Made by a program: the position numbers and the translations under genes. A stretch of DNA of 51,531 bases from Myxococcales bacterium (GTDB lineage Bacteria; Myxococcota_A; Polyangia; Fen-1088), in the NCBI GenBank assembly GCA_003158395.1, contig PMIX01000238.1, forward strand, positions 1 to 51,531. Direction: 5' to 3'. Shown here one piece after another: positions 3,010-50,170 of the stretch; position 1 is the stretch's first letter; each line of letters begins with the position of its first letter. The notes under the pieces are model-generated. The model saw only the letters and a program-made list of their open reading frames with translations. It had not been told where the DNA came from and searched no databases.

Positions 3010-3845
3010 TGAGCCGCCTCGTGCAACGTGTAAAGACTAGGCAACCTGCTAGCTGGGCGGCGCAGCTTGTCGAACGTGACCTTTTGCATGACGTGGGACG
3101 CGCCGTGGCGGACTTCGACCTCATCTCGGAGGGCGACCGGATCCTGGTTGCCGTTTCCGGCGGAAAAGACAGCTATTCTCTGCTCGCTCTGTTGGAAACG
3201 CTGCGCCGGCGGGCGCCCGTGCGCTTCGACCTTCTTGCCGTCCACCTCGACCAGGGCCAGCCGGGGCACGATCCCGCACCGCTTGCCGACTGGCTGCGTA
3301 CAAACGGCTTCGACCACCGCATTGTGCGTGAAGACACCTACTCAATCGTGGTCGACAAGGTCCCGGAAGGCCGCACCTACTGCTCAATGTGTGCGCGCCT
3401 GCGCCGCGGAATTCTCTACCGTCTGGCCAGCCAGTTTGAGTGCACAAAAATTGCGCTCGGCCATCACCGCGACGACGCTGTGGAGACGCTGCTGCTCAAC
3501 GTCTTCTTTGCGGGCAAGCTGGCCGCCATTCCTGCGCGCTTGGTCAGCGACGATGGCGCGTCCGTGGTGATTCGGCCGCTCATCTACTGCGCCGAAGAGA
3601 CCTTGACCCGCTTCGCCGAGAGCCGGCGCTTTCCCATCCTGCCCTGCAACCTGTGCGGCTCGCAGCCCGATGCCCAGCGCAAGCAGATGAAGGCCCTGCT
3701 GTCCCGACTGGAGTCGGAGCACCCCAATCTGCGCCAGACCATGCTGGCGGCGCTGGGCAATGTGAATCTGTCCCATCTGCTGGATCGCCAAGCAGGTAAG
3801 TTGATTCACGTCGGCTGCCGCCCGTCGCTGCGAACACGCAAATGA
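3000..3845 (+). CDS. ttcA: tRNA 2-thiocytidine(32) synthetase TtcA (PP-loop ATPase)
   Basis: PP-loop motif VAVSGGKDSYSLL. Cys pairs YCSMCARLRRG and PCNLCGSQ are typical of the TtcA family. Start is GTG 3000 or ATG 3009. Confidence 0.85.
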   Translation: MRAMSRLVQRVKTRQPASWAAQLVERDLLHDVGRAVADFDLISEGDRILVAVSGGKDSYSLLALLETLRRRAPVRFDLLAVHLDQGQPGHDPAPLADWLRTNGFDHRIVREDTYSIVVDKVPEGRTYCSMCARLRRGILYRLASQFECTKIALGHHRDDAVETLLLNVFFAGKLAAIPARLVSDDGASVVIRPLIYCAEETLTRFAESRRFPILPCNLCGSQPDAQRKQMKALLSRLESEHPNLRQTMLAALGNVNLSHLLDRQAGKLIHVGCRPSLRTRK

Positions 3846-4080
3846 GAGGGGAGGTCGGAGAGCCGAACCTGGTTGAGGCGACCGAAAGGGAGGCGGCCGA
3901 GAGAACTAAACTGATACATTTGAGATCAGCGTCCATCTACGCTTGGTTATGAAAGGTTTTCTTCGATCACAAGTCCACGCTGAAGGGGAGAAGAGCGCGC
4001 CATGAGTCTTTCCCGCTCCGGCGTCAGGATCCGCTATGATCTCAGCAGCCGTGTCACACACGCGAATGCAGGGATGGATC

Positions 4081-5280: not shown

Positions 5281-5308
5281 CCTCCGCGTTCGGCGGTGGA
5301 CTGGCGAC

Positions 5309-34898: not shown

Positions 34899-35957
34899 CT
34901 ATTGGTGGCAGTACCGGCACATCGCCGTACCGTACACCTCAGGCAGGCTGTGTTTTCGCAACCACTGGATCGGGTGTGGATTGCCGCCGATGCCACCCAC
35001 CCGGTGACACCCAACGCAGTTCGAATTCGCTCCCTGATCGTGGCACGAGGCACAGTTCACGATGTCGCGCCGGGCGGGCACTGCGTGCGACGTAGGGCCG
35101 GGGTAGGCCCAGCCAGGCGGGTGCGGGCTGCGCGGGTTGCTGCCCCCAGGCCCAACATTCTCCTGGCTGTGGCAAGCGGTGCAGAAGCCCGTGCCATGGC
35201 AGCGCTGGCACAAAACCGGGTCCGAGCGTGCCTCGATGCTATGGCGGGTCAGGTAGTCGCCGCGGTGGATGAAGTCGCTGGAAACATTCTCGCTGAACTT
35301 GAGTTCTATGCGCGTGGGTACGGTCCCGGCGTGGCAGTCGGCGCAGAAGTTCTGGTCGTGGCACTGCACGCACGCATCGGCGGTCGCGTGCGCGACGCTG
35401 CCGTGCTGCCGGACGAAGTCGCCAGCGTGTGAGAACTCGGCCACCGGTTTGAGCGGGAATCGTTTGAGATCGGTGTGGCACTTCACGCAGCGACCTTCGT
35501 CGAAGTCGACCCTATGCTCATGGCACTTGGTACAGGACTTCATGGTCGGCGGCGTCGCCCCGGGCTGGGAGTACTCCGAAAGCTTCACGTGGCAAGCCGC
35601 GCAGTCGTCGTTGACCAGCTTGAGGTGAACCTTGTGCGAGATGATGACGGTGTGGGGCTCCGGCGGATAGGTCCCCGGGTGGGCCGGATCAGTGTGGCAG
35701 TAGCCACACTCTTTCTGCTCTTTCTTGTCGGCGTGACACTCCAGGCACTTGGCCTCCGGCGGCCGCAAGCGATCCGTGACGGTCGCGGCCTCGGGCACTT
35801 CCTCGTGGCACATCAGACACGGCACGTCCTTCGTGTGAACCGCGTGCGATTGCCGGATCTCCTCGCCGGGCTGCTTGGCCCGCCTTGTCCCCAGCATGGT
35901 CGCGCAGGCGGCGATGCCCAGCGTTAGCACCGCAACCCATGCCCTGCGGCCGCTCAC
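34899..35957 (-). CDS. 13-heme c-type cytochrome lipoprotein (cytochrome c3/c7-like multidomain)
   Basis: GTG start with GTGA overlap to the upstream gene. Lipobox LTLGIAAC. There are 13 CXXCH motifs in 352 aa (CLMCH, CLECH, CGYCH, CAACH, CTKCH, CVKCH, CVQCH, CADCH, CQRCH, CTACH, CASCH, CVGCH, CRYCH). Confidence 0.85.
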   Translation of the reverse strand: MSGRRAWVAVLTLGIAACATMLGTRRAKQPGEEIRQSHAVHTKDVPCLMCHEEVPEAATVTDRLRPPEAKCLECHADKKEQKECGYCHTDPAHPGTYPPEPHTVIISHKVHLKLVNDDCAACHVKLSEYSQPGATPPTMKSCTKCHEHRVDFDEGRCVKCHTDLKRFPLKPVAEFSHAGDFVRQHGSVAHATADACVQCHDQNFCADCHAGTVPTRIELKFSENVSSDFIHRGDYLTRHSIEARSDPVLCQRCHGTGFCTACHSQENVGPGGSNPRSPHPPGWAYPGPTSHAVPARRDIVNCASCHDQGANSNCVGCHRVGGIGGNPHPIQWLRKHSLPEVYGTAMCRYCHQ

Positions 35958-37222
35958 GGCGTGACCTCTTTCACCACGCGGCCTCCTTCATAGACGATCT
36001 TGAGCAGGCCTTCGATCTGGTGTGTGGCATAGGGGGTCACATTGTCCATTCCGGTCAGTACCGCGCGCCAGGCCGGCGCCACGTCATACACCAGACTGCC
36101 CGATCCGAAGAAAGAACGATCCTGACCGTTCAGCCGCTGGTCCAGGTCGTACGCATCGAAATCGGCAACCACGCGAATTTTCGTCGTGATGGTTTGCCAG
36201 CCAAACACGCGGCCCATGAGATAGCCGCCGCCTGGGATCCTCAGCCGCCGGCTCTCCACGCCGAGTCGCGTTCGCCCGCCGCTGCCCAGATGCAGGGTGG
36301 CCTTTCCGCCCGTGTTCCAACCCCATCCACTGGCGTCGTGGACCTCGTGAAAATCGCCTTGCAGGTCCAACCTGCGCGGCCATGGCCGCAGAGCCAGAAA
36401 GCCGCCAAACTCGTCGCGCGTCTCCTGGGCGAAGACTGCGAAGATCGAATAGCGCGGCAAGAAGAGATCCGGGGCCGTGCGCCGGTAGTCCCCGGTCACG
36501 TCCACATAGCGACAAGGCCGCCAGTTGATTGCCCCATCAGCCTCGGCCAACCGCGCCTCGGGAAGGCTCCACCGTGCCAGCCCACTGAGCGCGAGCGAAT
36601 CCAGCAACCGGTAGCGGGCGTCGACCCCTGCATCCCGGCGGGACATATGTCGGCCCGCCCCGAGGATTTCCAAGATCGACACGCCCACCTCTGATTCGTA
36701 CGAACGACTCCAGAACGCTCTTGCCCCGGTCGTGAACTGGCCCCGGCTGTAGCCGAAGCGTGGGGTGACTGGAACGCCAACGAATCCTGACAAGCCGAAG
36801 CCCGCCCCCACACGCAACGTAGGGGCAAGGCCGTCGAACTGGACGTTGGCCGCGGTCCCCGGAAACACGAACTGGCGGCCCACGCGCAGGGTCGCTCGCC
36901 GGTGCCAGGTCGAGCCCTGCAAGTAGGCCACATCCACGTCGCCCAGCGCGCTCTTTCCGTCGCGCGGATCGCCTGCCACGACCTCACCCCAGCCCGAAAC
37001 CACGATCTGCGTGTCGTCGAACATTGGGTTCTTGATCTCCGAAGCGCGCAAGGAAACCAGCTCGAGGAAGGGCACCACGGTGCGGACGGTGCCGTCGCGC
37101 GGATCGCGCTGGCCCGAGATGATTGTGGTCGCGCTCGCCGTGACGGTCTCAGCCCGGGCCAATCCAGTCCCCGCCACCAGCGCGGCCAGACCAGCGAGAA
37201 GAGGCCGCCATCTAGTCGCCAT
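35954..37222 (-). CDS. Putative outer-membrane beta-barrel (porin-like) protein encoded between two multiheme cytochromes
   Basis: Sec signal MATRWRPLLAGLAALVAGTGLARA. There is no heme motif. Many short amphipathic strand-like segments rich in G/R/aromatics run throughout (LRVGRQFVF, GFGLSGFVGV, VGVSILEIL, VDARYRLL, GKATLHLG, IRVVADFDAY, GSGSLVYDV). The barrel assignment comes from pattern only. Confidence 0.6.
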   Translation of the reverse strand: MATRWRPLLAGLAALVAGTGLARAETVTASATTIISGQRDPRDGTVRTVVPFLELVSLRASEIKNPMFDDTQIVVSGWGEVVAGDPRDGKSALGDVDVAYLQGSTWHRRATLRVGRQFVFPGTAANVQFDGLAPTLRVGAGFGLSGFVGVPVTPRFGYSRGQFTTGARAFWSRSYESEVGVSILEILGAGRHMSRRDAGVDARYRLLDSLALSGLARWSLPEARLAEADGAINWRPCRYVDVTGDYRRTAPDLFLPRYSIFAVFAQETRDEFGGFLALRPWPRRLDLQGDFHEVHDASGWGWNTGGKATLHLGSGGRTRLGVESRRLRIPGGGYLMGRVFGWQTITTKIRVVADFDAYDLDQRLNGQDRSFFGSGSLVYDVAPAWRAVLTGMDNVTPYATHQIEGLLKIVYEGGRVVKEVTP

Positions 37223-38897
37223 CGAAGACTCCGTTCATGTGGGTCGTGGTCAGGACTCCCGACCCGCTGGAAAAGATGATGTTTCCGGCAGAGTCTATGG
37301 TGCTGCCGTGGCAGGCGACACACCCGGTTCGTGTTACCCCGGTCGGGTGTCCCGAAAACTGTGGTGGGATGCCGTGACAGGTGGCGCCGCACGCGCCGCT
37401 GTCGGGTGAGACCCAGTTGGGCGTCTGCTGGATGCCCGGGGTCCTGTCTGTGTTGAGCGGCTCACCGCCGCCGTGACAGTACGCGCCCGAGCAAGTCGCC
37501 CGACTGCGATCCCATACCGGCGCCGCGCTCTGGGCCCGCGCCAACGTCCCCGAGCCGGGTACGTTGGGGAAGACCGCGGCCGCCGCGACTGTGCCGGGCG
37601 CGTGACCTGGGCCGAAATGGCCGGGGCTAAGCACGTTGGCCGGAACCTGATGGCACTCCGAGCACTGGATCGGGCCACGAATGTCGAGCTGGGGCGTTAC
37701 CAAATGCCGCTGGTGCTGCCCCACCCCGATGGCCCCTGGATCGGAATTCCCTTGTAGATCGGGAGGGGGCGCCGGGGAGGCGGCTGAACCGTGGCAGGTG
37801 TTGCAGGGCGTGTTCGCGTCAGCAAAATCGACCGTGCCGTTGAGGTGCAGGTTCGCGCTGATCAGGTTGGTCTGCGCGTCGACAACGTTGCGATGGCAAC
37901 TCGAGCAGCGGGTCCCGCCTGCGCCGTTGGGCGGAAGGCCGTGGCAGAAGGTGCAGGTTTGGGTCGCGGGTCGAGGCGCGGCATTCCAGCTTGGGTTGTT
38001 AGTCACCGCCGCCGAGTCGGCGGTGGTGGCGCCATGGCAGTAAACGTTGCTGCACGTTTGCAGGTTCGCATCCCAGGCCGGCGGCCCCGCGCGCGTTCCA
38101 TCGGCGGGCGTGAGCGCGGCCAGTCCAGCCACCAGCGAGACTTGTGCAGGGCCGGTGCGCAGTGAGCCGTCGAGCGCAAGACCGTGATCCTGAGCGCTCT
38201 TGTGATCCGGATGGCAAGTCGAACAAGTGAACTGCTTGGCCAGCAGGCCACCGTCAACGTGGATCTTGTGCTTGCCCGAGGCTGGCGTGGAAGCGTGGCA
38301 GGCTGCACAGGCTGGCGTACCGTCGGGATTCATCACCATGGGCTGCATGCCGCCCGAGCCCTGGTGGCACGACAAGCAAGACACCCCTGTCGCCCCACCG
38401 GAAAAGTCCTGGCCATGGCACTTCTGACAAACGCCGAAATTGAAGTTGGACTCGAGCAGAATCGTGCCGTGGAAGTCGGGCTGCGCAGGATCCAGAACCC
38501 CGGCCGTGTGCACCGAGGTTGCCTCCTGCAGATAGGTGGCCCGGCAGGCGACCACCCATTTCGTTGCCTGTTCGTAGACATCGGGCATCCCCAAATGCGG
38601 GCCGGTTGCCGTCACTGGGTTCAGCACGGAAAGGAGCTTGGAACGACCATCGCCCGCGACCACATCTGGCGTCGTGCCCGCCCCCAGGGCGAGATTGTAG
38701 GTCGTCGTGTCGTAGCCACCCTGGGCCGGGCCCCCGTCTCCAGACGAGTGGCATTGGCTGCATCTCTCCTTGAAGAGTGGCCCGATGTTGTTCTCCCAAT
38801 CGGGGCAAGCGCGAGGGTCATTGACCAGTGGCCGCGCCTTCGCACATCCAAGGATTGAAACAGCCAGAGCGACTCCTGCGGCAAGACTGTGTTTCAT
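37212..38897 (-). CDS. Multiheme c-type cytochrome lipoprotein with CX4CH...CXXCH (Geobacter-type) repeat units
   Basis: ATG 38897 gives MKHSLAAGVALAVSILGC (lipobox). It has 10 CXXCH, 2 CX4CH (CSNVYCH, CSGAYCH) and 1 CX3CH (CGATCH). Its stop overlaps the start of the barrel gene by 11 nt. Confidence 0.85.
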   Translation of the reverse strand: MKHSLAAGVALAVSILGCAKARPLVNDPRACPDWENNIGPLFKERCSQCHSSGDGGPAQGGYDTTTYNLALGAGTTPDVVAGDGRSKLLSVLNPVTATGPHLGMPDVYEQATKWVVACRATYLQEATSVHTAGVLDPAQPDFHGTILLESNFNFGVCQKCHGQDFSGGATGVSCLSCHQGSGGMQPMVMNPDGTPACAACHASTPASGKHKIHVDGGLLAKQFTCSTCHPDHKSAQDHGLALDGSLRTGPAQVSLVAGLAALTPADGTRAGPPAWDANLQTCSNVYCHGATTADSAAVTNNPSWNAAPRPATQTCTFCHGLPPNGAGGTRCSSCHRNVVDAQTNLISANLHLNGTVDFADANTPCNTCHGSAASPAPPPDLQGNSDPGAIGVGQHQRHLVTPQLDIRGPIQCSECHQVPANVLSPGHFGPGHAPGTVAAAAVFPNVPGSGTLARAQSAAPVWDRSRATCSGAYCHGGGEPLNTDRTPGIQQTPNWVSPDSGACGATCHGIPPQFSGHPTGVTRTGCVACHGSTIDSAGNIIFSSGSGVLTTTHMNGVFDGD

Positions 38898-38979
38898 CAA
38901 ATGGCCCCACCAGAAATGCTGTTGCGTCGGCAACGGTGCGAATATCGCCATCCTGACCTTCTGGCGCATCTTTCGGCGT

Positions 38980-38985
38980 AGTATA
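38980..38985 (-). promoter_or_regulatory. Possible -10 box (TATACT) in the AT-richer divergent region upstream of the cytochrome operon
   Basis: The minus strand reads TTGCCT-15 nt-TATACT about 80 nt upstream of ATG 38897. The spacer is short. No GG-N10-GC sigma-54 motif was found here. Confidence 0.2.
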
Positions 38986-39027
38986 TGCAAGTTATCCGAT
39001 AGGCAAAAGTGACTAAATCAGTGTCGC

Positions 39028-39852: not shown

Positions 39853-41247
39853 CTAGCCCTTCTTAAAGTCCTCTGAGCGAACACTGTAGCGCTTGAGCAG
39901 GCGATGGAGACTTTCGCGCTCGATGCCAGCCCGCTCGGCGGCGCGGGTCACGTTGCCGTCGAACTCGCGCATGAGCACGGCCAAATATTCCCGCGAGATG
40001 CGGTCCCGCGCGGTCTCCATGGCCTCGCGGTAGGGCATCCTGACCAGCACCTCGGCCGGAAGCGCGCCCACCTGGGCGCCCCGCAGCTCCGCCGGCAGAT
40101 CGCGGATGTCGATCTCCTTTCCGGCCGCGATAGCCACCGCGCGCTCGATGGCGTTCTCCAACTCGCGCACGTTGCCCGGCCAGTTGTAGGCCGTCAGCGC
40201 CCGCAGAGCCGCGTTGCCGATCCCCGTGACATCGCGCTTGCCGCTGCGCGTGTGTTTGGCGAGAAAGTGGGCCGCCAGCGCCGGGATGTCCTCGCGTCGC
40301 TCGCGCAAGGCGGGCATGCGGATGGGGAAAACGTGCAATCGGTAGTAGAGATCCTCACGGAACCGTCCTGCCTGTACCTCGGCCTTGAGGTCCCGGTGGG
40401 TGGCGGTGATGATCCGCACGTCGACCGGGAACGACTTGTTCTCGCCCACCCGACGGATCTCCCTGTCCTGCAGAACCCGATTCAGCTTCACCTGAACCGG
40501 CAAGGGCAGCTCCCCCACCTCGTCCAGGAACAGCGTGCCGTGGTTGGCTTCCTCAAACAGGCCCGGTTTGCTGGCAGCCGCGCCGGTGAAGGCACCCTTG
40601 GCGTGGCCAAAGAGTTCGCTCTCCACCAACTCGGCCGGCAGCGCGCCAGAGTTCACCGGAACGAAGCGATTGTGTTTGCGCCCACTGTGGTAGTGCACCG
40701 CACGCGCCGCCAGCTCCTTGCCCGTGCCGGTTTCCCCGGTGAGCAGCACCGTCATGTCAAGCCCCGCGGCCCGCTCCAGAAGACCGTACACCTCGCGCAT
40801 GGGCGGGCTCTTGCCGACCATGTTGTGGAACGAGTTCACACCCTCCAGCTCCTTGCGCAGGCTCACCGTCTGTGCGCGCAGGCGTCGGCGCTCCAGGGCG
40901 CGCGCCACCACCAGCGCCGCGGCGTCGGGATCAAAGGGCTTCTGGATGTAGTCGTACGCGCCCTGTTTCATGGCCTCGACCGCGTCGGGAACCGAGCCGT
41001 AGGCAGTCATCAAGACCACCTCGGTCTCGGGCCAGCGCGCTTTGACGGATTCCAACACCGTGAAGCCACTGGCACCCGGCATCTTGAGATCGGTCACCAC
41101 CACGTCGTACTCGTGCTCCGCGATCAGCGCCAAGGCCTTGGCGCCGTCGCTGGCGGTGCTGAGGTTGTGCTCGTCGCCCAGGATCTTGGCGAACAGCTTG
41201 AGCATGTTCTCCTTGTCGTCCACCACCAACACGGAAGGCTGGTTCAT
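39853..41247 (-). CDS. Sigma-54-dependent response regulator (NtrC family: REC-AAA+-Fis HTH)
   Basis: REC domain (VLVVDDKENM...VVVTDLKMPG), Walker A GETGTGKE, the GAFTGA motif (ESELFGHAKGAFTGA), VRELENAIERAV, and a C-terminal HTH (GNVTRAAERAGIERESLHRLLKRY). Confidence 0.9.
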   Translation of the reverse strand: MNQPSVLVVDDKENMLKLFAKILGDEHNLSTASDGAKALALIAEHEYDVVVTDLKMPGASGFTVLESVKARWPETEVVLMTAYGSVPDAVEAMKQGAYDYIQKPFDPDAAALVVARALERRRLRAQTVSLRKELEGVNSFHNMVGKSPPMREVYGLLERAAGLDMTVLLTGETGTGKELAARAVHYHSGRKHNRFVPVNSGALPAELVESELFGHAKGAFTGAAASKPGLFEEANHGTLFLDEVGELPLPVQVKLNRVLQDREIRRVGENKSFPVDVRIITATHRDLKAEVQAGRFREDLYYRLHVFPIRMPALRERREDIPALAAHFLAKHTRSGKRDVTGIGNAALRALTAYNWPGNVRELENAIERAVAIAAGKEIDIRDLPAELRGAQVGALPAEVLVRMPYREAMETARDRISREYLAVLMREFDGNVTRAAERAGIERESLHRLLKRYSVRSEDFKKG

Positions 41248-42713
41248 GTCGTGTCTCCTTTGGGGCGCGGCAAGCGTATGACGAAGCAGGTGCCGCCCGG
41301 TCCGGGCGGCTCGGCGACGATCTCGCCACCATGGGCGCGCGCGATAGCTTGCGAGACCGCCAGGCCCAGACCGGTTCCGCGCGGCTTGTTCGTGAAAAAA
41401 GGTTCGAACAGGCGCTCGCGCGCCTCCGCATCCAGGCCCGGACCTGAATCACGAACCGTCACCTGCGAACGCTCCCCGTTGTCTCCGACATGGATCTCGA
41501 CGCGTCCGGCGGGAGCAGCCGCCTCAACCGCGTTCTTGATGAGGTTGAACAGAACCTGGCGCAGCTTGGACGCCGTGCCCGTGACGCCACCCTGCCCCGT
41601 GACCGCCACAGTCACGCCCGGTGTCGGCGCCGCTTCCGCAAGCCGTGCCACCACGTCGTCGCATAGCGCGCGCAGGTCCACGCGCTGCGATCCGACCACG
41701 ACTGGCCGCGAAAAATCGAGGAGTCCCTCCACGATCTCCTGACAGCGCAGGACCTCTTCCTCCACGATCGCCAGATCGTCGCCCAGCGGCCCGACCGCCT
41801 TTTTGCGCAAAAGGCGCGTGTACCCCAGGATCACTCCCAACGGGTTGTTGATCTCGTGTGCCACGCCGGCGGCCAGGCGGCCCACGCCGGCTAGGCGCTC
41901 GCTCTGCAGGAGACGGTGCTGCTGTTCCTTGAGCGATGCGACCATGTTGTTGAACTGCCGGGCCAGGTCGCCGAATTCGTCGTTGCCGCCAACTGCGATG
42001 CTGGTATCCAGGTCGCCGGCTGCCAGCCGTTCTGCTCCGGCATGGAGAAGCGCAACCGGCCGCGCAACCTTGCGGCCAAGATAGACGGCCACTCCCCCGG
42101 CCAGAAGCGGCGCCAGCACCAGGAAGAACACGCTCCAGCCCAAGGTCCGATCGCGGGTTGCCTGGGCAAATGACTGCAGGTCCCCGATGGCGTCTTCGAA
42201 GCGCTTGGCCAAAAGATCGGTTCGTTGCTGAATGCGGCCTACCACGGCCAGGGCGCGCGCATGCTCGACATGGGCGTCCGCGGTCCGACCGGAGAGCACG
42301 GCCGGCACGATCTGCCGGCTGAAGATGCTGTCCAATTCGGCGGCACCGGCCTCGATGTCGTCGACCCAGGCGCTCTCGTCAGGCCTTTCCGCCCGCTCGC
42401 GCAAGTCATTGATCAGGGTGAGAACCCGTGCTTTGGCTTCGGAATAGAAGCCGAGATGGCTGTCGTTGCCGATGATAATGGTGTGGGCTTGGTGGGCGTA
42501 CTGGTCGCGCACGGCGCTGGCCAAATCCAAGGCCAAACGCATGCTGTCCATTCGCGCGCGCGTCCGGGCCAGACCGCGGTTGACCTGGGCGAAACCGAGC
42601 AGCGCGATCGACGTGGCGCCAGCGTAGAGCGCGATCAGTGCCGCAAACGCCAGCGCCAACCGCCGCGCGGTTCCGGAGCGGACGCCAATCATGCTGAAGA
42701 CCGACGGTGACAT
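41244..42713 (-). CDS. Sensor histidine kinase (helical periplasmic sensor, HAMP, HisKA, HATPase)
   Basis: Two TM segments, HAMP (AAGDLDTSIAVGGNDEFGDLARQFNNM), H-box GVAHEINNPLG, N-box LIKNAVEA, and G-boxes DSGPGL / GTGLGLAV. 4-nt overlap with the response-regulator gene. Confidence 0.85.
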   Translation of the reverse strand: MSPSVFSMIGVRSGTARRLALAFAALIALYAGATSIALLGFAQVNRGLARTRARMDSMRLALDLASAVRDQYAHQAHTIIIGNDSHLGFYSEAKARVLTLINDLRERAERPDESAWVDDIEAGAAELDSIFSRQIVPAVLSGRTADAHVEHARALAVVGRIQQRTDLLAKRFEDAIGDLQSFAQATRDRTLGWSVFFLVLAPLLAGGVAVYLGRKVARPVALLHAGAERLAAGDLDTSIAVGGNDEFGDLARQFNNMVASLKEQQHRLLQSERLAGVGRLAAGVAHEINNPLGVILGYTRLLRKKAVGPLGDDLAIVEEEVLRCQEIVEGLLDFSRPVVVGSQRVDLRALCDDVVARLAEAAPTPGVTVAVTGQGGVTGTASKLRQVLFNLIKNAVEAAAPAGRVEIHVGDNGERSQVTVRDSGPGLDAEARERLFEPFFTNKPRGTGLGLAVSQAIARAHGGEIVAEPPGPGGTCFVIRLPRPKGDTT

Positions 42714-42940
42714 TCGCGGTTACAGTGTAGCCGAAACGGTCAACGCCCGCCAAGGCGCGAGGACAAATTGTGCAAATATGATGGGCAGCGGGCCTGCCCG
42801 GCATGGCCCGCCATCATGTATGATCGCGCGATGGCCACCTCGTTCCTAAGCCTCATGGGAGCGCTGCGCTCCTCCCAACTGTACCCCCGGCGACCTTGCA
42901 CTTGAGAACCTTGCCCGCCCGACGACGGCTGCACGTTGCC

Positions 42941-44458
42941 ATGGCAGCTCTCGCGCGCCACGAAGCAGCCCTGCTGTTCGTTTGTGTAACGAGCGTCTAT
43001 CTTCTCACGCGGTACCCCGCTGTGGGGGGGAGATACCAGTGGGGCGACGCCGCCAAGTGGCAGTACCTCGGCTCCATTCTGGGTGTCTCTCACCCGCCTG
43101 GCAGTCCGCTTTATGTCCTGCTCACATTTCTTTGGTCGAAGCTGCCACTTGGTACGGGGCTGGGCGCGAAGATCATGGCCTTCTCCTCTGTCTGCGGCGG
43201 TGGCGCGGTGTCTTTGCTATACGCAAGCGCGCGGCGGCTGTCCTTTTCGCGGGCAGCGTCACTTCTTGCCGCAGGGGTGTTCGCGTTTTCTCTGCCCGTT
43301 TGGGTCTTCTCCACCGAGGCCGAGGTCTATTCGGCGTTTGCGTTGAGTATGGCTTTCGTCATTCACCGCGCGTTGCTGTGGAGGACAGGCCTACGCGACC
43401 GAGATCTCTGGGCGGCCTATTTCGTCTACGCGCTTTCGTTCTCGATCCACTACATGGCCATCACCTACTTCTTGCCGTTGGCCATGCTGTTGGTAGGAAC
43501 AAACTGGCGCGCGATTCTTCGCCCGACCAACGTGCTCATGGCGCTCGCAGCGATCATGGCGGGTTTGTTGCCGATGCTCTGGCTATGGTTTCGGATCCCC
43601 GGGGCAGACTACAACGAGTTTCCAGGGCCGAGAACTTGGCCGAAGTTCATCGATTTCCTCCTCGCACGCCAATACCGCAACACGATGTTTTCATTTACGT
43701 TGAAGCAGATGTGCTTCGACCGAATCGGTTGGGGCGTGTCAAGACTCGGTCGGTTCATGGGGTTCCCACTCCTGGCGGTCGTACCCATAGGCGTGCCGTG
43801 TCTTGCGCGGGTGGCCCGGCTCGTGGCCGCGTTTGCTGTGGTGGGGTTCCTCGCGCCTTTTCTGTTTTGGGTGGGCTACGCTCGGGGAGACGAGTTGGCG
43901 GGAGCCATCCCCGTCTTGATGATAGCGGGGATTCTTGTGGCGTCGGTTTTCGACTCCCTAGCTTCAACGGTCACGCCTCGTTGGGTGCGCATCAGCGTCT
44001 CCCTTGTCGCGATAGCATCCGCTGCAATCAGTCCCATCGCCACCGCTGCGGAATTTGCCCAGCATGATCCCGCGGTCCATTTCACCTATGCCGTCGACTC
44101 GATTCCGAAGTACCGCTGGGACGTCGCCTGCATAGTCCAGCAGGCTGAGCCGAATGCCACGATCGTGCCGCCGTACGGCGACTACGGTTCGAGACAGATC
44201 GTCTACTACCACCGCTATGCCGATCCCGTCGTGAAGGCAAAGCACCTCACGTTCAGATACTTCTTCGCAGCTCCCAGCGAATGGGCGTGGGCGCCTCCGT
44301 CGTGGACGCCTGATCCGTCAGAACCCGGTCCCATATATTTCTACTCCGGCAGCTACGTCGATCGGTTCCGTCGCTCCGGATTCCGCGTCGAAGAGACAAC
44401 CATGGGCGCCTGTGACGGCAAGGGAGGTACTTTGCCGTTCTATCGCGCGTCGCATTAA
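42941..44458 (+). CDS. DUF2723 (TMEM260-like) polytopic membrane protein, second and shorter paralog
   Basis: YLLTRYPAVGGRYQWGDAAKWQYLGSILGVSHPPGSPLYVLLTFLW parallels the N-terminal signature of the 14229-16391 paralog. It is multi-TM. ATG 42941 is favoured over the TTG at 42896. Confidence 0.75.
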   Translation: MAALARHEAALLFVCVTSVYLLTRYPAVGGRYQWGDAAKWQYLGSILGVSHPPGSPLYVLLTFLWSKLPLGTGLGAKIMAFSSVCGGGAVSLLYASARRLSFSRAASLLAAGVFAFSLPVWVFSTEAEVYSAFALSMAFVIHRALLWRTGLRDRDLWAAYFVYALSFSIHYMAITYFLPLAMLLVGTNWRAILRPTNVLMALAAIMAGLLPMLWLWFRIPGADYNEFPGPRTWPKFIDFLLARQYRNTMFSFTLKQMCFDRIGWGVSRLGRFMGFPLLAVVPIGVPCLARVARLVAAFAVVGFLAPFLFWVGYARGDELAGAIPVLMIAGILVASVFDSLASTVTPRWVRISVSLVAIASAAISPIATAAEFAQHDPAVHFTYAVDSIPKYRWDVACIVQQAEPNATIVPPYGDYGSRQIVYYHRYADPVVKAKHLTFRYFFAAPSEWAWAPPSWTPDPSEPGPIYFYSGSYVDRFRRSGFRVEETTMGACDGKGGTLPFYRASH

Positions 44459-44697
44459 CCGCGGCCTCTCGCTTGATGGTGAGACACGCCTCGCGCGCGC
44501 GGTCGACGCAGTGCTGTGGGGCTGATACGACGGCCAACCGTCGCGGAGTCGCTTCCTTCCCGAAAACGAGGGTGCTCATGGCTGGCTCCCTCCGAGCACC
44601 CGTCGTGTGGGCACTTCACCGGACACAAAACGCGGAGTCCCATCATCCAACAGCCGATCGCAGCAACCAGACAAATACCCTACGCCTACCGATTTAC

Positions 44698-44726
44698 TTG
44701 GATTTGCCCCTGCGAGATGCTAATCA
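44698..44726 (+). promoter_or_regulatory. Ambiguous promoter candidate upstream of the collagen-like cytochrome gene
   Basis: TTGGAT-17 nt-(TGc)TAATCA reads as a weak sigma-70 extended -10 promoter. The same stretch, TGGATTTGCCCCTGCG, also satisfies the minimal sigma-54 GG-N10-GC spacing (44700-44713). Neither match is strong. Confidence 0.2.
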
Positions 44727-44780
44727 ATTCGACATAGTTTGCGCGACCTTGGCAGCCGTCCTTCCGGAGGTAACAGGCCC

Positions 44781-47246
44781 ATGACAGGAAACCGTCTTTC
44801 TCGATTGGCAATCTGTCTTTCTGTTGGTTTCAGTTTGGCGGCATGTACGGGCGCTCGCGGCCCAACCGGGCCTGCGGGCGAAGCGGGTCCACCGGGACCT
44901 CCAGGCCCTCCAGGCGAAGCTGGTCCTCCCGGACCTCGAGGCCCCGGGATTGATGCCTCATCTGCCGGAGATGGGCCAATCGGCAAGCCTCCGACCGTGA
45001 CGATCGCTGGCTCCACGCAGACTGCTGGGTTTGGCGCACCGGTCACCCTAGTTGGCGCCGCAACCGACCCCGACTCGGACGTCAGCACGCTCACGTACAC
45101 GTGGGTCCAAACTGGTGGCCCCACGGCGACTTTGACCGGAGCCGGCAGCAAGACTCTGAGCTTCACCACACAAGCCCTGGCCGATGCAAAAACCCCTGTG
45201 ATGGCCCAGCTTCACTTCGGCGTGCTTCCCGTCAGCCCGGACGAAGCCGGAAATTACTCCTTTGAATTGGATGTCACTGATCCACAAGGCAACGTGGGCA
45301 AGGCCACGGCTACGGTCCGCTCGAACCCGCCCACCGCGGGACTACAGAATGTTCCCGTCGGCATCCGCCAGTTTCTGATGGGTGACGGTGGAACTCAGAC
45401 GACTTGGAACTGGAGTCTGGACGCAACGGGGGCGACTGGCTCAAATGCCACCCTGGCGAGCGCTACCACGCAGTTTCCCAGCTTCATCCCTGATGTCGTG
45501 GGCAGCTACACCCTGACCGAGGCGGTGTCAACCAAGACGCTCACCATCGTCGCGGGCAATTGGCGTGGCATGATGACCGACTACGCGACAAACTGCCAGA
45601 CCTGTCACAACGACACGATCGCTCCGGATGTGTTCACGCCGTGGTCCAAGACGGCTCACGGGATCGCCGTACAGCACAAGCTCGACGGGACCTACTCCGA
45701 TGGGGTGACGCCGCTGACCTACTTTCCGCGCTCCTGCATGGAATGCCACACCGTGGGCGACTCGCCGGCAGCGGTCAACAACGGCTTCGATGACGTCGAA
45801 AAGACCAGCGGCTGGACCATGCCCACCAAGCTGCAGCCAGGCAACTGGGAGAACCTGCTGACGAACTACCCCGATCTGGCCAAGTTGGCCGGCATCCAGT
45901 GCGAAAACTGCCACGGTCCGCAAGACGGCGCGATCGGGCACCTCTCGACCGCGCACACTACGTCCAGCCACACGACCCCCGACAAGTGGACGCGCGTGTC
46001 GTTCTCCGAGGGTGTTTGCGCCTCCTGCCACCAGGACGCAAGCCACCACTACAAGCCGAGCCAATGGGCGACGTCCGCCCACGCCCAGCGCGACCTCGTC
46101 TCCAACGCCACCTTTGAGTCCCGTGGGACCACGGCGGCCCACTGCGGCCGGTGCCATTCGGCCCAAGGCTTTGCTGCGTACTCAGCCCAGCTGGCTGCGG
46201 GAGACGCGGGCCTGCTGCACAAGCCCGATGGCAGCGCGGCCGACGAGGCCTATCTGCGCGGGCTAGGCCTGCAGTCTTCCACCGTCGAGGCGATCACCTG
46301 CGCGGCCTGCCACGATCCGCACGATGCCAAGAACCCCGGCCAGCTTCGTTTGGGCGGAGACCTCAAGGCGTTGCCCAACGGCCTAACCAACATCTCCGAC
46401 GCGGGCAAGGGTGCCACCTGCATGGCCTGTCACAATACCCGGAACGCTGAACACGATGACTTCGTCGCTGCGGCCACCGATTTCTCGGGCCCACACACGC
46501 CTTCGCAAACCGACCTGCTCTACGGGTTCAACGCGTACTTCATGCCGCGTCTCAATCCATCCCCCCACCTATCAGTGACCGATACCTGCGCGGGCTGTCA
46601 CGTGGCCGTACCCACTGCCACCGAGAAGGCCGCGGGACAAACCGACAACCACAACTTCGCCACCGACGACACCGTCTGCGCCTCTTGCCACTCGTCGTCG
46701 ACCAACGGAGAGGCTCTGCTGGCTGCCAACAACGCGCAACTTGGCGAACTGAGTGCCGCGATCGGAACAAAGGCCCTGGCCATCATCGATGCCCTGTACA
46801 CCGCCGGAAACACACTTTCTGTGCGGGCATACCGACAGCTGACCGATCAGTACAGCTCCGCGGCTGCCACCACAGCCAACGTTCTCTTGTCCACCGCACC
46901 CACCGCGGTCGTCCTCCGTTCCGCCATCCACGGGACGACTTCCTTCACCCTAACTCTGGCCGCGCCAGTGGACGTCACTTGGGTAGCGACAGCGTCCGCC
47001 CCCGCCAGTACCGAGACCTTGGCGCAGATCGACTGCCAGATCAGCGGCATCACCATCACAGGCCAGAGCGCGCCGCCTGTGCCGCCCGCCTTGACAGGCG
47101 CACCGGTGCCCGCCATCGCGACGAATTCGGTGGTGGCCAAGGCGAGCTGGAACCTGCAATTGCTCAGCAACGACGGCTCGAGAGGCTTGCACAATCCTGA
47201 CTTCTTCCAAGACGTGATTGTCAACACCCTGGAAGCCCTGCAATAG
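44781..47246 (+). CDS. Lipoprotein 9-heme c-type cytochrome with N-terminal collagen-like triple-helix repeat and PKD/Ig-like domains
   Basis: GGAGG lies 10 nt upstream of ATG 44781. Lipobox GFSLAAC, then (Gly-X-Y)11. PKD-like segments follow (VTLVGAATDPDSDVSTLTYTWVQTGGP; YSFELDVTDPQGNVGKATATV). Nine CXXCH motifs: CQTCH, CMECH, CENCH, CASCH, CGRCH, CAACH, CMACH, CAGCH, CASCH. Confidence 0.85.
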   Translation: MTGNRLSRLAICLSVGFSLAACTGARGPTGPAGEAGPPGPPGPPGEAGPPGPRGPGIDASSAGDGPIGKPPTVTIAGSTQTAGFGAPVTLVGAATDPDSDVSTLTYTWVQTGGPTATLTGAGSKTLSFTTQALADAKTPVMAQLHFGVLPVSPDEAGNYSFELDVTDPQGNVGKATATVRSNPPTAGLQNVPVGIRQFLMGDGGTQTTWNWSLDATGATGSNATLASATTQFPSFIPDVVGSYTLTEAVSTKTLTIVAGNWRGMMTDYATNCQTCHNDTIAPDVFTPWSKTAHGIAVQHKLDGTYSDGVTPLTYFPRSCMECHTVGDSPAAVNNGFDDVEKTSGWTMPTKLQPGNWENLLTNYPDLAKLAGIQCENCHGPQDGAIGHLSTAHTTSSHTTPDKWTRVSFSEGVCASCHQDASHHYKPSQWATSAHAQRDLVSNATFESRGTTAAHCGRCHSAQGFAAYSAQLAAGDAGLLHKPDGSAADEAYLRGLGLQSSTVEAITCAACHDPHDAKNPGQLRLGGDLKALPNGLTNISDAGKGATCMACHNTRNAEHDDFVAAATDFSGPHTPSQTDLLYGFNAYFMPRLNPSPHLSVTDTCAGCHVAVPTATEKAAGQTDNHNFATDDTVCASCHSSSTNGEALLAANNAQLGELSAAIGTKALAIIDALYTAGNTLSVRAYRQLTDQYSSAAATTANVLLSTAPTAVVLRSAIHGTTSFTLTLAAPVDVTWVATASAPASTETLAQIDCQISGITITGQSAPPVPPALTGAPVPAIATNSVVAKASWNLQLLSNDGSRGLHNPDFFQDVIVNTLEALQ
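44850..44948 (+). repeat. Collagen-like Gly-X-Y repeat, 11 uninterrupted triplets (coding)
   Basis: GAR GPT GPA GEA GPP GPP GPP GEA GPP GPR GPG, read directly from 44850-44948. It begins 2 residues after the lipobox Cys. Confidence 0.9.
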
Positions 47247-47381
47247 GTATTCGGGGCTCGTGTCGAAAACATAGGGCCACAAGTTCCTCAGCCTCCCCGG
47301 TCGCGGCAAGCTATGCTTGCAGGGACGGCCGGGGCCGCCAGAACCGCGAAGAACAGCCAATCTGGGACATTTGAAGAGGCC

Positions 47382-48887
47382 ATGCCGGTGCTGCCCAAGT
47401 CGCTTTCTCCCACCATCGCCAGACTGGCCAACTACGCGAGAAATCCGCTCACGGTCCTCGGCTTTGGACTGACGACGCTGTCAGGGCTCGCCTTGATCGT
47501 CTTCCTCGCGCTCGAGGTGGGGGGCCAGGTCGACAATCCGTACACCGGGGTGTTCGGCTCAGCCTTTCTGCCCTTGCTCTTCGTGGGCGGGCTGCTGCTC
47601 ATGCCAATCGGCATCCTTCGGCGACGCCAGGCGTTCATGAGCAGCGGTCAGTCACCCGACGCCATCACGACCTACCCGAAGCTGGATTTCAACGATCCGC
47701 ACCTGCGACGTGTGGCCCTGGTCATCGCCGCGCTCACCGTGATCAACGTCGTGGTACTCGCGACAAGCTCGGTCGTGGGGCTGAATTTCATGGACACACC
47801 GAAGTTCTGCGGAACCGTGTGCCACAGGGTCATGCGGCCGGAATACACGGCCTACCAGAATTCACCGCACGCGCGGGTCAAGTGCGTTCAATGCCACATC
47901 GGACCGGGCGCCTCCTGGGCGGTCCGTTCCAAGTTCGATGGCCTACGCCAGGTGTGGAAGGTGATGACCGGGACCTATGCCCACCCCATTCCCTCGCCCG
48001 TGCACACGCTCCGCCCGGCGCGCGACACCTGCGAAAGCTGCCACTGGCCAGCCAAGCACTACGGCGACAAGCTGCGCGTTGTTGGCCGCTTTGCCGAGGA
48101 CGACAAAAACAGCGCCAGCTTCACCGCGCTGTTGCTCAGGACTGGCGGCGGCGCCTTTGGGGCTGGCCAGCCTCACGGCGGGATCCACTGGTGGCACATC
48201 TACGCCGACAATCGCATCCGCTACTTGGCCACGGACCAACGCCGGCAAGAGATCGCCTGGGTCGAGCTGACCACTCCCGACGGAATGAAGACGGAGTTCA
48301 CGCGCGAGGGCGCGAACCTCCCGCCTCCGGACAGCATCCAAAGATCAGCGCGCGTGATGGACTGCATCGACTGCCACAATCGGCCGACTCACCTGTTTGA
48401 GACCCCGGCCAAGGCCGTTGACAGTGTCCTGCAGCGGCAGGCGGATCTGCGATCCCTGCCGTTCCTCAAGCGGGAGACGGTCAAGGCGGTCTCGGCGGTC
48501 TACCCCAGCCACGACGAGGGCATGGCCGCAGTCCGCCAGAGTGTGACCGCCTTCTACCGCAAATCCTATCCGGAGATCGCTGCACGCGACGGCAAGCTGG
48601 TTTCGCGGGCTGCGGACGAGGCAGCTGGGGTGTACGATCGTACGGTGTTCCCCGAGATGAACACCAATTCCAAGACCCACCCCAACAACATCGGACACGA
48701 CGACTCGCCGGGCTGCTTCCGCTGCCACGACGGCAGCATGAAAGCGTCCAAGGGCGACCAGGTCATTCCCAATGATTGCGACACCTGCCATGCCATTCTG
48801 GTCGACGGCAGCCCCAGCGAGCCTGACCTCAGCCAGCTCGTGCTGGCGCCGCCCGTGGTTCCTGCCCCCTCGGAGGCCAAGCCGTGA
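47382..48887 (+). CDS. Membrane-anchored multiheme cytochrome, NapC/NirT-like (candidate quinol dehydrogenase)
   Basis: GAAGAGG SD, ATG 47382. Three predicted TM helices (LTVLGFGLTTLSGLALIVFLAL; FLPLLFVGGLLLMPIGIL; VALVIAALTVINVVVLATSSVV). Then FCGTVCHRVMRPEYTAYQNSPHARVKCVQCH, a NapC/NirT-like pattern. Five CXXCH motifs plus one CX3CH. Confidence 0.8.
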   Translation: MPVLPKSLSPTIARLANYARNPLTVLGFGLTTLSGLALIVFLALEVGGQVDNPYTGVFGSAFLPLLFVGGLLLMPIGILRRRQAFMSSGQSPDAITTYPKLDFNDPHLRRVALVIAALTVINVVVLATSSVVGLNFMDTPKFCGTVCHRVMRPEYTAYQNSPHARVKCVQCHIGPGASWAVRSKFDGLRQVWKVMTGTYAHPIPSPVHTLRPARDTCESCHWPAKHYGDKLRVVGRFAEDDKNSASFTALLLRTGGGAFGAGQPHGGIHWWHIYADNRIRYLATDQRRQEIAWVELTTPDGMKTEFTREGANLPPPDSIQRSARVMDCIDCHNRPTHLFETPAKAVDSVLQRQADLRSLPFLKRETVKAVSAVYPSHDEGMAAVRQSVTAFYRKSYPEIAARDGKLVSRAADEAAGVYDRTVFPEMNTNSKTHPNNIGHDDSPGCFRCHDGSMKASKGDQVIPNDCDTCHAILVDGSPSEPDLSQLVLAPPVVPAPSEAKP

Positions 48888-50170
48888 GATATCTCGGCAT
48901 GGTCGGTCTGACCGTGCGCCGAGGACAGCAGGAAGGGCTGGCGAAATACACTTTCAGTCCGCAGGAGCGTGAGGTCCAGGCCAAGGCCCTTCACCAGGCC
49001 TGCGACTTCCTCGAAAGCGTGTACCTGGCCACCTGCAATCGGGTCGAGGTGATCTTCTTGTGCCGCCGGGGCACCCCAGTTTCCGAGTATCGCAGGCGCA
49101 TCCACGGGTTCTTCGCAGCGCGCAGCCAAGCCGGAACGGCCAAGGAGCCGACGGCGCGGATCGCAGCCCAGGGCCTGCACGCCTACGAGAAGGATGGCGC
49201 GGCCGAACACCTTTTCTGCGTGGCCGCGGGTCTCGACTCGCTCAACCCTGGCGATTCCCAGATTCTGGGCCAGGTCAAGGATGCGTTGCAGGTGGCGCAG
49301 CGGCTGGGGTTGGCCGGCCCGCACCTGCAGCTAGTCTTTGAAGAAGCCTTCCAGGCGGCCAAACGCGTGCGCAGCAAGACCAGCCTCGGGGCCAGGCCGG
49401 TATCCATGGTTTCGCTGGCCTTCAACCTCATCGACGCACGGACCAAGGGGCCCGCCACGGTGGCGCTCATCGGAGCGGGCGAGATGACACGCCAATGTGG
49501 CGAGCATTTGCGCGGCCGGGCCGAGTGCAACCTTCTCTTCGTCAACCGCACGGTGAGCAAGGTGGTCGAGCTCGCCGCCTCCTGTGGCGGCCGCGCCTTG
49601 GCCCTGGATGCTTTTCTGGCAGCGCCCGGGCATGTGGAGGTCATCGTGACCGCCACCTCGGCGCGCGAGCCTCTCCTCGGACGCGCGTTCTTTGCAGCCC
49701 TGCAGGGCTCGGCGCCGGTGGTGATTGATCTGGCCGTACCCCGCGACACCGACGTGCAGGCCGCCGCGGCCGCAGGAGTTCAGTTGTTCGACATCGACCA
49801 CCTGAAGGCCGAGGCTGAACACAACCGGCGGGCGCGCGAGGCCGAGATCGCCGAGGCTCGGATCATCATCGACGAAGCCCTCGAGGCGCTCCGCCGGCGG
49901 GTGTTCGAGCGCGACATCAGTCCCATTGTGCGCGACTTGCGCAGCCAGGGCCAGGCGGCGGCCGACGAGTTGCTCAAGCAGCTTTTCGACAACGGCCTTG
50001 CCAAGCTGGACGAGGTGCATCGCGACCACATCCGGCGTTTCGGCCAGCAGGTCGTCAATCGACTTCTGCACCTGCCGACCGTGGGGCTGAAGCGTCTGGC
50101 GCAGGACCACGGCATGGAAGCGGTAGAGGCTTTCTTGCAGGGCGTGCGTGACGACCACCACGGGCAGTAG
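48884..50170 (+). CDS. hemA: Glutamyl-tRNA reductase
   Basis: Active-site region VYLATCNRVEVIF, SLNPGDSQILGQVK, and NADPH site ALIGAGEMT. The GTG 48884 start overlaps the upstream stop (GTGA). Alternative ATG at 48899. Confidence 0.9.
   Translation: MRYLGMVGLTVRRGQQEGLAKYTFSPQEREVQAKALHQACDFLESVYLATCNRVEVIFLCRRGTPVSEYRRRIHGFFAARSQAGTAKEPTARIAAQGLHAYEKDGAAEHLFCVAAGLDSLNPGDSQILGQVKDALQVAQRLGLAGPHLQLVFEEAFQAAKRVRSKTSLGARPVSMVSLAFNLIDARTKGPATVALIGAGEMTRQCGEHLRGRAECNLLFVNRTVSKVVELAASCGGRALALDAFLAAPGHVEVIVTATSAREPLLGRAFFAALQGSAPVVIDLAVPRDTDVQAAAAAGVQLFDIDHLKAEAEHNRRAREAEIAEARIIIDEALEALRRRVFERDISPIVRDLRSQGQAAADELLKQLFDNGLAKLDEVHRDHIRRFGQQVVNRLLHLPTVGLKRLAQDHGMEAVEAFLQGVRDDHHGQ

Follow-up and report, generated by a model that had tools for sequence, protein, structure and literature searches.

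In the study of extracellular electron transfer, a central question is how cells place haems beyond the outer membrane, its lipopolysaccharide (LPS) and the extracellular polymeric substances (EPS); the solutions known so far comprise cytochrome polymers (OmcS, OmcE and OmcZ), surface decahaem cytochromes and soluble shuttles. MtrC and OmcA of Shewanella have a short flexible tether and no collagen tract, and PgcA of Geobacter sulfurreducens, a monomeric extracellular trihaem lipoprotein, has (PT)n linkers between its haem domains. Collagen-like stalks are known from Scl1 and Scl2 of Streptococcus (about 50-80 triplets) and BclA of Bacillus (20-80 triplets), which are anchored C-terminally (LPXTG) or in the exosporium and have a trimerising globular domain beside the helix. 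Here we analysed a stretch of 51,531 nucleotides (the window; 65% G+C) from a soil Myxococcales bacterium of the Polyangia (GenBank assembly GCA_003158395.1, contig PMIX01000238.1). We found that the gene at 44781-47246 (+) encodes a predicted lipoprotein in which 11 Gly-X-Y (GXY) triplets, against the far longer tracts of Scl and BclA, are followed by two immunoglobulin (Ig)-like domains and a head with nine CXXCH haem motifs. Both modules, bacterial collagen-like stalks and outer-membrane lipoprotein multihaem cytochromes, are known, and it is their fusion, with the helix starting at the anchor, that we could not find described. No publication linking collagen repeats to multihaem cytochromes was found in the searchable literature, the Desulfuromonadia cytochromome survey included, which agrees, within that literature, with an earlier interpretation of the same DNA from its letters alone (the sequence-only reading) that knew of no c-type cytochrome fused to a collagen-like repeat. 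We propose that these bacteria probably carry a protein for electron transfer on a stalk of collagen type.

The open reading frame runs from an ATG at 44781 to a stop at 47244-47246 on the forward strand, encodes 821 amino acids (aa) and is preceded by a GGAGG 9 nt 5′ of the ATG that is kept in relatives. Its parts, as delimited from the sequence, from Pfam and from an AlphaFold2 (AF2) model with its predicted local distance difference test (pLDDT) values, are as follows.

44781..47246 (+), entire gene for the nonahaem lipoprotein cytochrome with collagen-like stalk, 821 aa and stop codon (open reading frame, homologues)
44781..44846 (+), signal peptide and lipobox L-A-A-C, with Cys22 (44844-44846) as the predicted lipidated first mature residue (sequence reading)
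44850..44948 (+), collagen-like tract (Gly-X-Y)11, aa 24-56, a predicted triple-helical stalk of ~9.4 nm (sequence, family conservation)
44949..44993 (+), short linker (IDASSAGDGPIGKPP), 15 aa, from the stalk to the first Ig-like domain (pLDDT <50 to aa 64, without Pfam match)
44994..45317 (+), Ig-like domain 1 (K319L-like PKD), aa 72-179 (Pfam PF22352, E 5e-9; AF2 beta-sandwich)
45348..45560 (+), Ig-like domain 2, aa 190-260 (AF2 strands, pLDDT >90)
45573..47243 (+), nonahaem domain (nine CXXCH, aa 272-637) with a C-terminal long helix, beta-domain and two helices

The N-terminus (MTGNRLSRLAICLSVGFSLAAC) consists of a positively charged n-region (MTGNRLSR), a hydrophobic h-region (LAICLSVGFS) and the lipobox LAAC, which agrees with the pattern [LVI][ASTVI][GAS]C, and the same signal peptide and lipobox layout is kept in 76 homologues; Cys22 is thus the residue at which lipidation is predicted. 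After Thr23 the tract reads GAR GPT GPA GEA GPP GPP GPP GEA GPP GPR GPG, that is, 11 triplets with zero interruptions in which Pro makes up 36% of the residues, exactly as the sequence-only reading had placed them behind the lipobox Cys at 44850-44948. The AF2 monomer model, built with 97 homologues (pLDDT 87.7, predicted template modelling score 0.85), showed a helical haem domain at aa ~265-821 behind two beta-sandwiches (aa 72-179 and aa 190-260); aa 1-64 (pLDDT <50) were unstructured, and the monomer model is uninformative on a trimer. The Pfam PF22352 match (K319L-like PKD) spans aa 76-179, and the Foldseek matches of Ig-like domain 1 were Ig/PKD domains, among them the AAVR PKD domain. 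The haem domain is ~555 aa long, its nine CXXCH motifs fall within aa 272-637, and the protein has no further Cys pairs. Thus the open reading frame, its motifs and Pfam agree with the earlier description of a lipobox-bearing multihaem cytochrome with nine CXXCH, and the Pfam match together with the AF2 sandwiches confirms the two PKD/Ig-like segments described there. Another open reading frame in the window, 20713-23178 (+), also encodes 821 aa; this is a coincidence, since that protein is unrelated and has a spermidine-synthase-like domain.

We further studied whether the tract is a genuine feature of the family. A homologue search with the window protein yielded 282 matches at E<=1e-5, and 120 listed homologues plus the window protein were used for the tract counts. 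Among these, 75 of 76 lipobox N-termini (defined as a hydrophobic N-terminus ending in Cys) carried at least four adjacent GXY triplets, and in these 75 the triplet number ranged from 4 to 31 (median 11.5), always in register, down to a protein identity of ~36%. In 34 of 86 sequences the GXY register passes through the lipobox itself (G-C-x-G...), the tract there starting at the lipidated residue. Two seemingly tract-less close homologues, P0008 and P0016, turned out to be start-codon miscalls, and their in-frame upstream DNA encodes a signal peptide, a lipobox and 13 and 10 triplets, respectively. The sequence-only reading had held that orthologues without the tract, or with the tract out of register, would point to an accident of GC-rich DNA; the homologue comparison that it called for found instead a tract that stays in register while its triplet number varies from 4 to 31.

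In the DNA of the tract each of the four codons for Gly and each of the four for Pro is in use, and given that these codons are mixed it is not a DNA simple repeat. Between the window and locus L083, the ten shared Gly codons differ by four synonymous and zero non-synonymous changes, and on this comparison the Gly codons are under purifying selection. The probability of a perfect Gly phase over 33 residues, given the composition, is ~6e-8, and the tract is the sole Pro-containing GXY run of at least five triplets across the six frames of the 51.5-kb window. As a control, we identified the tract in 0 of 103 lipobox homologues of the neighbouring OmcB-like lipoprotein cytochrome, which come largely from Polyangia/Myxococcota metagenome bins; this rules out the idea that every lipoprotein cytochrome of these organisms carries such a tract. 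Judged by these comparisons, the tract is a genuine, family-wide, collagen-type repeat and no accident of GC-rich DNA.

The composition of the triplets was then examined over 89 family tracts and 1110 triplets, which contain a single interruption. In these counts, which are taken from related and hence non-independent sequences, Arg occurred 0 times at X and 32 times at Y, the X/Y counts were 25/91 for Gln, 91/37 for Glu and 31/5 for Leu, and Lys at Y followed by Gly and Asp or Glu at X (K-G-D/E) was seen 88 times against 19.9 expected, a 4.4-fold enrichment. Overall, Gln, Thr, Asn and Lys preferred Y, and Glu, Leu and Pro preferred X. Host-guest work by Ramshaw and Brodsky is said to explain the position of Arg and the preference for the stabilising K-G-D/E pair by interchain contacts in the triple helix. 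The tract weakly matched collagen peptides in the PDB, and these were the only hits of a single-sequence PDB search, the haem domain being found by profile or fold search; many homologues with longer tracts have a precomputed match to Pfam Collagen (PF01391). The X/Y preferences and the KGD/KGE enrichment therefore favour a real triple helix over a generic Gly/Pro linker.

To see how widely the tract is used, we turned to the nine-haem family as a whole, which was found in Myxococcota, Chloroflexota, Planctomycetota, Acidobacteriota, Verrucomicrobiota, Calditrichota, Geobacter and Anaeromyxobacter and also in Ignavibacteria, including Stygiobacter electus. A phmmer search of 1.84 billion cluster representatives returned 447 clusters (50% identity) at E<=1e-30, and of the top 150 matches 129 had the haem domain; the N-termini of these representatives were classed by regular expression. 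Of these 129, 58 had a lipobox and at least four triplets (a few more escaped the regular expression), 6 a lipobox and three triplets, and 14 a lipobox without obvious spacer; 20 had a signal peptide without a lipobox recognised by the expression, although at least four of them (P0062, P0104, P0413 and P0467) do have lipobox and tract, and in 27 the N-terminus was missing or unclear. The tract is thus, by this census, the dominant but not the sole solution between the anchor and the first domain. It is also coupled to the lipid anchor, because haem-domain relatives with a plain type-I signal peptide and no lipobox are without it. The closest genome locus, L001, is syntenic, 85% identical and comes from a Myxococcales metagenome-assembled genome (isolate fen_1158); fen and soil Polyangia are the best-sampled close relatives, and the cultured species Minicystis rosea has a homologue (P0052).

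The lipobox and tract were also seen sporadically on other proteins. Lipoprotein cytochromes bearing both are encoded at L090 5559-7751 (-) (730 aa, 10 haems, 7 triplets), at L019 14135-16366 (744 aa) and 3813-5297 (495 aa) and at L030 9304-12780 (1159 aa), and these have 5-10 CXXCH and 7-22 GXY triplets; the one in L090 is the OmcB-like member of a conduit cluster. A ~200-aa non-haem lipoprotein at L014 12432-13037 (+), directly after a NapC-like gene, has a lipobox, at least six GXY triplets and a CarboxypepD_reg-like body, and the lipobox-collagen module can therefore be attached to non-cytochrome cargo. In P0034 and P0035 (aa ~33-180) the tract is split by three Cys-containing repeats of ~25 residues (C.V.A...G...I.C.DG..V.V), P0118 and P0444 have a similar unit behind short tracts, and a different Cys-rich motif (W-D-L-x-x-[DN]-G-x-C-D) occurs in P0363, P0373, P0376 and P0432.

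Collagen rises by 0.286 nm per residue. At this value the 11 triplets would span ~9.4 nm, and the family would range from ~3 to 27 nm. We compared stalks between verified same-locus paralogues, the exception L030 included. In the seven pairs, which are overall 40-60% identical, the numbers of residues after the Cys were 42/43, 42/40, 37/39, 34/33, 60/57, 36/30 and 44/68, the last being the one exception; the median difference was 2 residues against a family range of ~12-93 (permutation p ~0.004). Therefore the fixed distance from the membrane that the sequence-only reading proposed does not hold across the family, with its ~3-27 nm stalks, and does find support within a genome, where same-locus paralogues are matched. 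Many genomes have two tandem stalked paralogues with near-equal triplet numbers, as seen at L086 7191-12682, L087 6909-12682, L088 514-6615, L089 8001-14439, L008 and L004, so that collagen heterotrimers are possible. Matched stalks would fit either a genome-specific length requirement or co-assembly of the paralogues into one helix.

For the haem head, the top Foldseek match of the AF2 model in the PDB was OcwA (6i5b_A; E 8.5e-6, probability 1.00), a remote match (target-normalised TM-score 0.48, 14% identity) that compares the protein fold of a model without haems; the remaining matches all fell on the Ig-like domains. A family profile searched against the PDB found NrfA (7e-5) and OcwA (8e-5), then ONR, ACIII subunit A and c554, and Pfam placed c554 (aa 272-328), c7, paired-CXXCH and MtrC/MtrF II-IV families on the head. 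In a 97-sequence alignment, eight CXXCH were fully invariant, and conservation reached at least 90% for the CXXCH at aa 319-323 and for Cys633 in the ninth motif. The AF2 model ends in a long helix (aa 643-674), an inserted beta-domain and helices at aa 784-797 and 806-820, so that the three C-terminal helices of the NrfA/c554 superfamily are present. Although remote, the similarity in fold and haem modules places the modelled head in the OcwA/NrfA/c554 superfamily. Membership of the MtrC/OmcA/MtrF family was considered and ruled out by the nine haems and the fold, despite the Pfam MtrC II/IV match: that match (PF22113, MtrC/MtrF II-IV, 50 bits) covers a pentahaem-like stretch only, and no MtrC, MtrF or OmcA structure was among the top 50 fold matches of the head.

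Seven non-motif His residues are conserved for the nine haems (H293, H434, H514, H572, H596, H624 and H804), and judged from this alignment two haems of the head may be open or Met-ligated, as in OcwA. In most of this superfamily the three C-terminal helices form the oligomer interface (PMC9250108), and on the model the head could possibly oligomerise in the same way.

The neighbouring genes were examined next, and those most relevant to an electron-transfer role are the following.

47313..48887 (+), NapC/NirT/NrfH-type membrane cytochrome, 524 aa, probable quinol dehydrogenase partner (Cytochrom_NNT E 4e-10, NCBIfam NrfH E 6e-14)
48884..50170 (+), hemA (glutamyl-tRNA reductase), translationally coupled downstream, haem supply (NCBIfam TIGR01035 E 1e-72)
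39853..42713 (-), response regulator of the sigma-54-dependent type (39853-41247) with a HAMP histidine kinase (41244-42713), both candidates for regulating the island (Pfam)
37212..38990 (-), OmcB-like lipoprotein cytochrome, 592 aa, lipobox ILGC, 10 CXXCH and 3 CX4-5CH (Geobacter-type signature GSu_C4xC__C2xCH, Pfam/NCBIfam, E 2e-20)
35954..37222 (-), ~22-stranded outer-membrane beta-barrel with a signal peptide, 422 aa, outside any Pfam family, putative conduit porin (AF2 pLDDT 85)
34899..35957 (-), 13-CXXCH cytochrome, 352 aa, presumed periplasmic member of the conduit (Pfam Cytochrome_C7, NCBIfam nanowire_3heme)

The last three make up a porin-cytochrome-conduit triad at 34899-38990 (-), ~6 kb upstream of the stalked gene and on the opposite strand. 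Its 422-aa barrel is all-beta with short turns, has ushers and porins as Foldseek matches (E down to 1e-7) and belongs to a family of at least 145 homologues (E<=1e-5), the few of which with a source name are from Polyangia. In more distant relatives a conduit triad lies directly downstream of the stalked gene and on the same strand in L002, L004 and L011, and is divergently adjacent in L090; in Byssovorax-like bins, two tandem stalked paralogues stand beside NapC-like, cytochrome b, Rieske/cytochrome b and further multihaem genes. The stalked cytochrome is therefore linked to conduit triads while standing outside their three canonical parts.

In 11 of 80 loci, spread over several phyla, a NapC-like gene adjoins the nonahaem gene, non-lipoprotein forms included. 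The window's copy at 47313-48887 is unusually long, with three N-terminal transmembrane-like segments instead of one, and its motifs are a CX3CH (CGTVCH) followed by five CXXCH; this long form adjoins the nonahaem gene in several phyla. Similarly, hemA adjoins in ~10 of 80 loci, close relatives included; in the window it is followed by a histidine kinase, in relatives also by a response regulator and a HemN-like radical-SAM gene. Pairs homologous to the sigma-54 regulator and kinase adjoin the nonahaem gene in ~17 of 80 loci; in the window the pair (39853-42713) is parted from the gene's leader by a glycosyltransferase gene. This leader of ~110 nt (window 44660-44780 (+)) is strongly conserved against the ~85% identical relatives L001, L081 and L083, with stretches such as CTACCGATTTACTTGGATTTGCC ... 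AATGCTA ... CCTGGCAGTCGTCCCTCCGGAGGT, and we found in it no conserved sigma-54 -24/-12 site (GG-N10-GC, by eye), no sigma-70-like site and no Rfam match. The intervening GT-C glycosyltransferase (TMEM260-like/PMT_2; 42896-44458 (+)) was considered as a dedicated glycosylase of the stalk or Ig-like domains and rejected, because no relative examined has a GT-C glycosyltransferase beside the gene and a second copy lies at 14229-16391 (-); both copies are protein O-mannosyltransferase-like, and the place of the first beside the cytochrome gene looks fortuitous. Altogether, the OcwA-like head, the adjoining NapC/NirT-type gene and the linked porin-cytochrome conduit fit the electron-transfer role that the sequence-only reading had assigned to the protein.

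Based on the above results, we propose a stalked nonahaem lipoprotein of the outer membrane in which a collagen trimer rod carries a distal, cell-surface electron-transfer module that works with a NapC-type dehydrogenase and a conduit; we put this forward tentatively, at a little under an even chance of being right as a whole. The protein would be exported by Sec, lipidated at Cys22 and loaded with haem at the nine CXXCH. The 33 residues that start one past the anchor would wind with two more chains into a collagen triple helix, giving a presumably rigid rod of ~9-10 nm that is rooted in the membrane by three lipidated cysteines and on which each chain displays two Ig-like domains and a haem head. 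Electrons might flow from menaquinol through the NapC/NirT-type cytochrome and periplasmic cytochromes to the porin-cytochrome conduit and across the outer membrane, where the stalked heads could serve as the distal surface module for acceptors such as Fe(III) minerals or humics beyond the LPS/EPS layer. Since a lipid-anchored rod can tilt and diffuse, the head could alternately contact conduit and acceptor. In a more elaborate version, which is speculative and in our view rather unlikely, Polyangia and allied bacteria would employ the collagen triple helix as a building element of a respiratory chain: a pivoting rod of genome-specific length, formed by homotrimers or by heterotrimers of tandem paralogues, would hold 27 haems outside the outer membrane and act as a tethered electron shuttle or as a canopy spanning the LPS/EPS layer from the conduit to insoluble acceptors. 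Electrons would then have a third route, beside cytochrome filaments and diffusible shuttles, for travelling tens of nanometres off the cell.

Several points weigh against this proposal. A free triple helix of 11 non-hydroxylated triplets would be close to the minimum length for stability. With 3-5 triplets, as in some family members, none could form unaided, Pfam Collagen scores the window protein at 21.7 bits, below its 27.2 cut-off, and neither Pfam nor NCBIfam revealed a trimerisation or nucleation domain (V-domain, C1q or coiled coil) flanking the tract. In four of the 129 representatives in the census a different low-complexity spacer (poly-Thr, poly-Pro, poly-Gly or poly-Ser) takes the place of the tract, so that the shared function in distant relatives may be that of a spacer, with trimerisation as an extra; as some of these relatives use other spacers, a trimer would not be essential to the family. 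A collagen rod has no cofactors, and a head held 15-20 nm off the conduit is an electron-transfer gap unless the rod tilts. The matched stalks of paralogues may instead reflect gene conversion, because the paired tracts in L008 and L030 are near-identical in sequence. Linkage to a NapC/NirT-type gene is equally typical of periplasmic reductases, for example NrfA-NrfH, and OcwA is a mixture of monomer and dimer with no trimer (PMC6703420).

The rival that survives best keeps the collagen-stalked trimer and turns it towards the periplasm, on the inner leaflet of the outer membrane or on the inner membrane, where the head, held at a set depth, would take electrons from the NapC/NirT-type cytochrome and either feed the periplasmic cytochrome of the conduit or reduce a soluble substrate at open haems, in the manner of NrfA, ONR, MccA and OcwA. 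The NapC/NirT-type gene directly downstream, adjacent in those 11 of 80 loci across phyla, would then be the classical NrfH-NrfA pairing; members of the NrfA/c554/OcwA superfamily all have nitrite or NO reductase activity in vitro, and the seven conserved His leave room for the two open or Met-ligated haems that this would use. Default Lol sorting leaves lipoproteins on the periplasmic face, and by analogy with Lpp the stalk lengths matched per genome could suit a periplasmic ruler. However, stalks range from ~3 to 27 nm between genomes and the CarboxypepD_reg/PKD extras are variable, whereas periplasm width is not expected to vary so much, and extracellular proteins are where PKD, CarboxypepD_reg and collagen-like modules typically occur. 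Moreover, among solved structures the nearest in fold is a reductase of the cell surface, several relatives have the gene co-operonic with a complete outer-membrane conduit, and in L090 the tract is carried by an OmcB-type cytochrome, a type that is surface-exposed in Geobacter. We consider the periplasmic arrangement unlikely, and a shade more so than the pivoting rod.

Less probable again is that the tract is a monomeric Pro/Gly-rich tether that gives the head reach only, like the poly-Thr or poly-Pro of relatives or the Pro-Thr repeats of PgcA. The other low-complexity spacers that some distant lipoprotein relatives have at this position, the existence of tracts of 3-5 triplets, the lack of a recognisable flanking trimerisation domain, the sub-threshold Pfam Collagen score and the non-trimeric OcwA would all fit such a tether. 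Yet a tether has no need for Gly at each third residue, and the single interruption in 89 tracts and 1110 triplets, the absence of Arg from X, the 4.4-fold enrichment of K-G-D/E and the purifying selection on Gly codons speak against it. Finally, the reading of the tract as a functionless low-complexity artefact of GC-rich DNA or as the product of a wrongly annotated frame, suggested by the 65% G+C of the window and by antisense frames of the tract that are also open and Gly/Pro-rich, is refuted by the comparative data and has next to no chance left, given the in-register conservation down to ~36% identity, the varied and synonymous codon usage, the 0 of 103 in the control lipoprotein cytochrome family, the uniqueness of the run in six frames of 51.5 kb and a frame fixed by the upstream signal peptide and the nine downstream CXXCH.

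If the collagen-stalked surface module is right, a probably trimeric cytochrome on a collagen stalk would be a different design for reaching beyond the cell, in a family that is large and environmentally widespread. Its collagen triple helix would be the first to start from a lipid anchor and the first on a redox enzyme, and would offer a short, naturally occurring platform on which trimeric cargo could be presented at membranes. Fen and soil Polyangia have barely been studied as electroactive organisms, and the proposal is directly testable because the cultured Minicystis rosea has the homologue named above.

Compared with known systems, the triad in the window resembles the Geobacter conduits (OmaB-OmbB-OmcB and ExtABCD) in combining a periplasmic multihaem cytochrome, a beta-barrel and a CX4CH-containing lipoprotein cytochrome; the difference lies in the stalked nonahaem protein, a fourth component without described counterpart there. 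MtrC and OmcA are likewise lipobox-anchored multihaem cytochromes tied to a porin-cytochrome conduit, and OmcA is an accessory surface reductase beside MtrCAB, the role that we propose for the stalked cytochrome; they differ in having ten haems rather than nine and in possessing the split-barrel domains I and III, which are lacking here. PgcA shares the use of Pro-rich repeats as extended spacers in a lipoprotein cytochrome, whereas here the repeats are Gly-X-Y, are confined to the stretch from the anchor to the first domain and bear a triple-helix signature. Braun's lipoprotein Lpp is alike in concept, with three N-terminally lipidated chains that form a rigid rod whose length matters, but it is an alpha-helical coiled coil, carries no cargo, is linked to peptidoglycan and has no relation in sequence or fold.

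The closest relative in fold is OcwA of Thermincola potens (PDB 6I5B; PMC6703420), which also has nine CXXCH haems, a c554-like N-terminal module and an NrfA-like C-terminal module with C-terminal helices, and which is likewise a proposed terminal reductase at the cell surface. Two of its haems are penta-coordinated, its signal peptide is cleaved to the N-terminus EKPAD, and its description does not mention a lipoprotein (PMC6703420). OcwA differs in its Gram-positive host and in having neither collagen tract nor Ig-like domains. For the stalk, the closest are Scl1/Scl2, BclA and the PF01391 family in general, with which it shares uninterrupted non-hydroxylated Gly-X-Y triplets, Pro at X, charged or polar residues at Y, KGD/KGE, the combination of a stalk with a globular head and a triplet number that varies between strains or species; the NCBIfam SclB match lies far under its cut-off (16 vs 325 bits). 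Unlike in these proteins, the helix here begins at an N-terminal lipid anchor with no known trimerisation domain, and the head that it carries is a redox protein rather than an adhesin.

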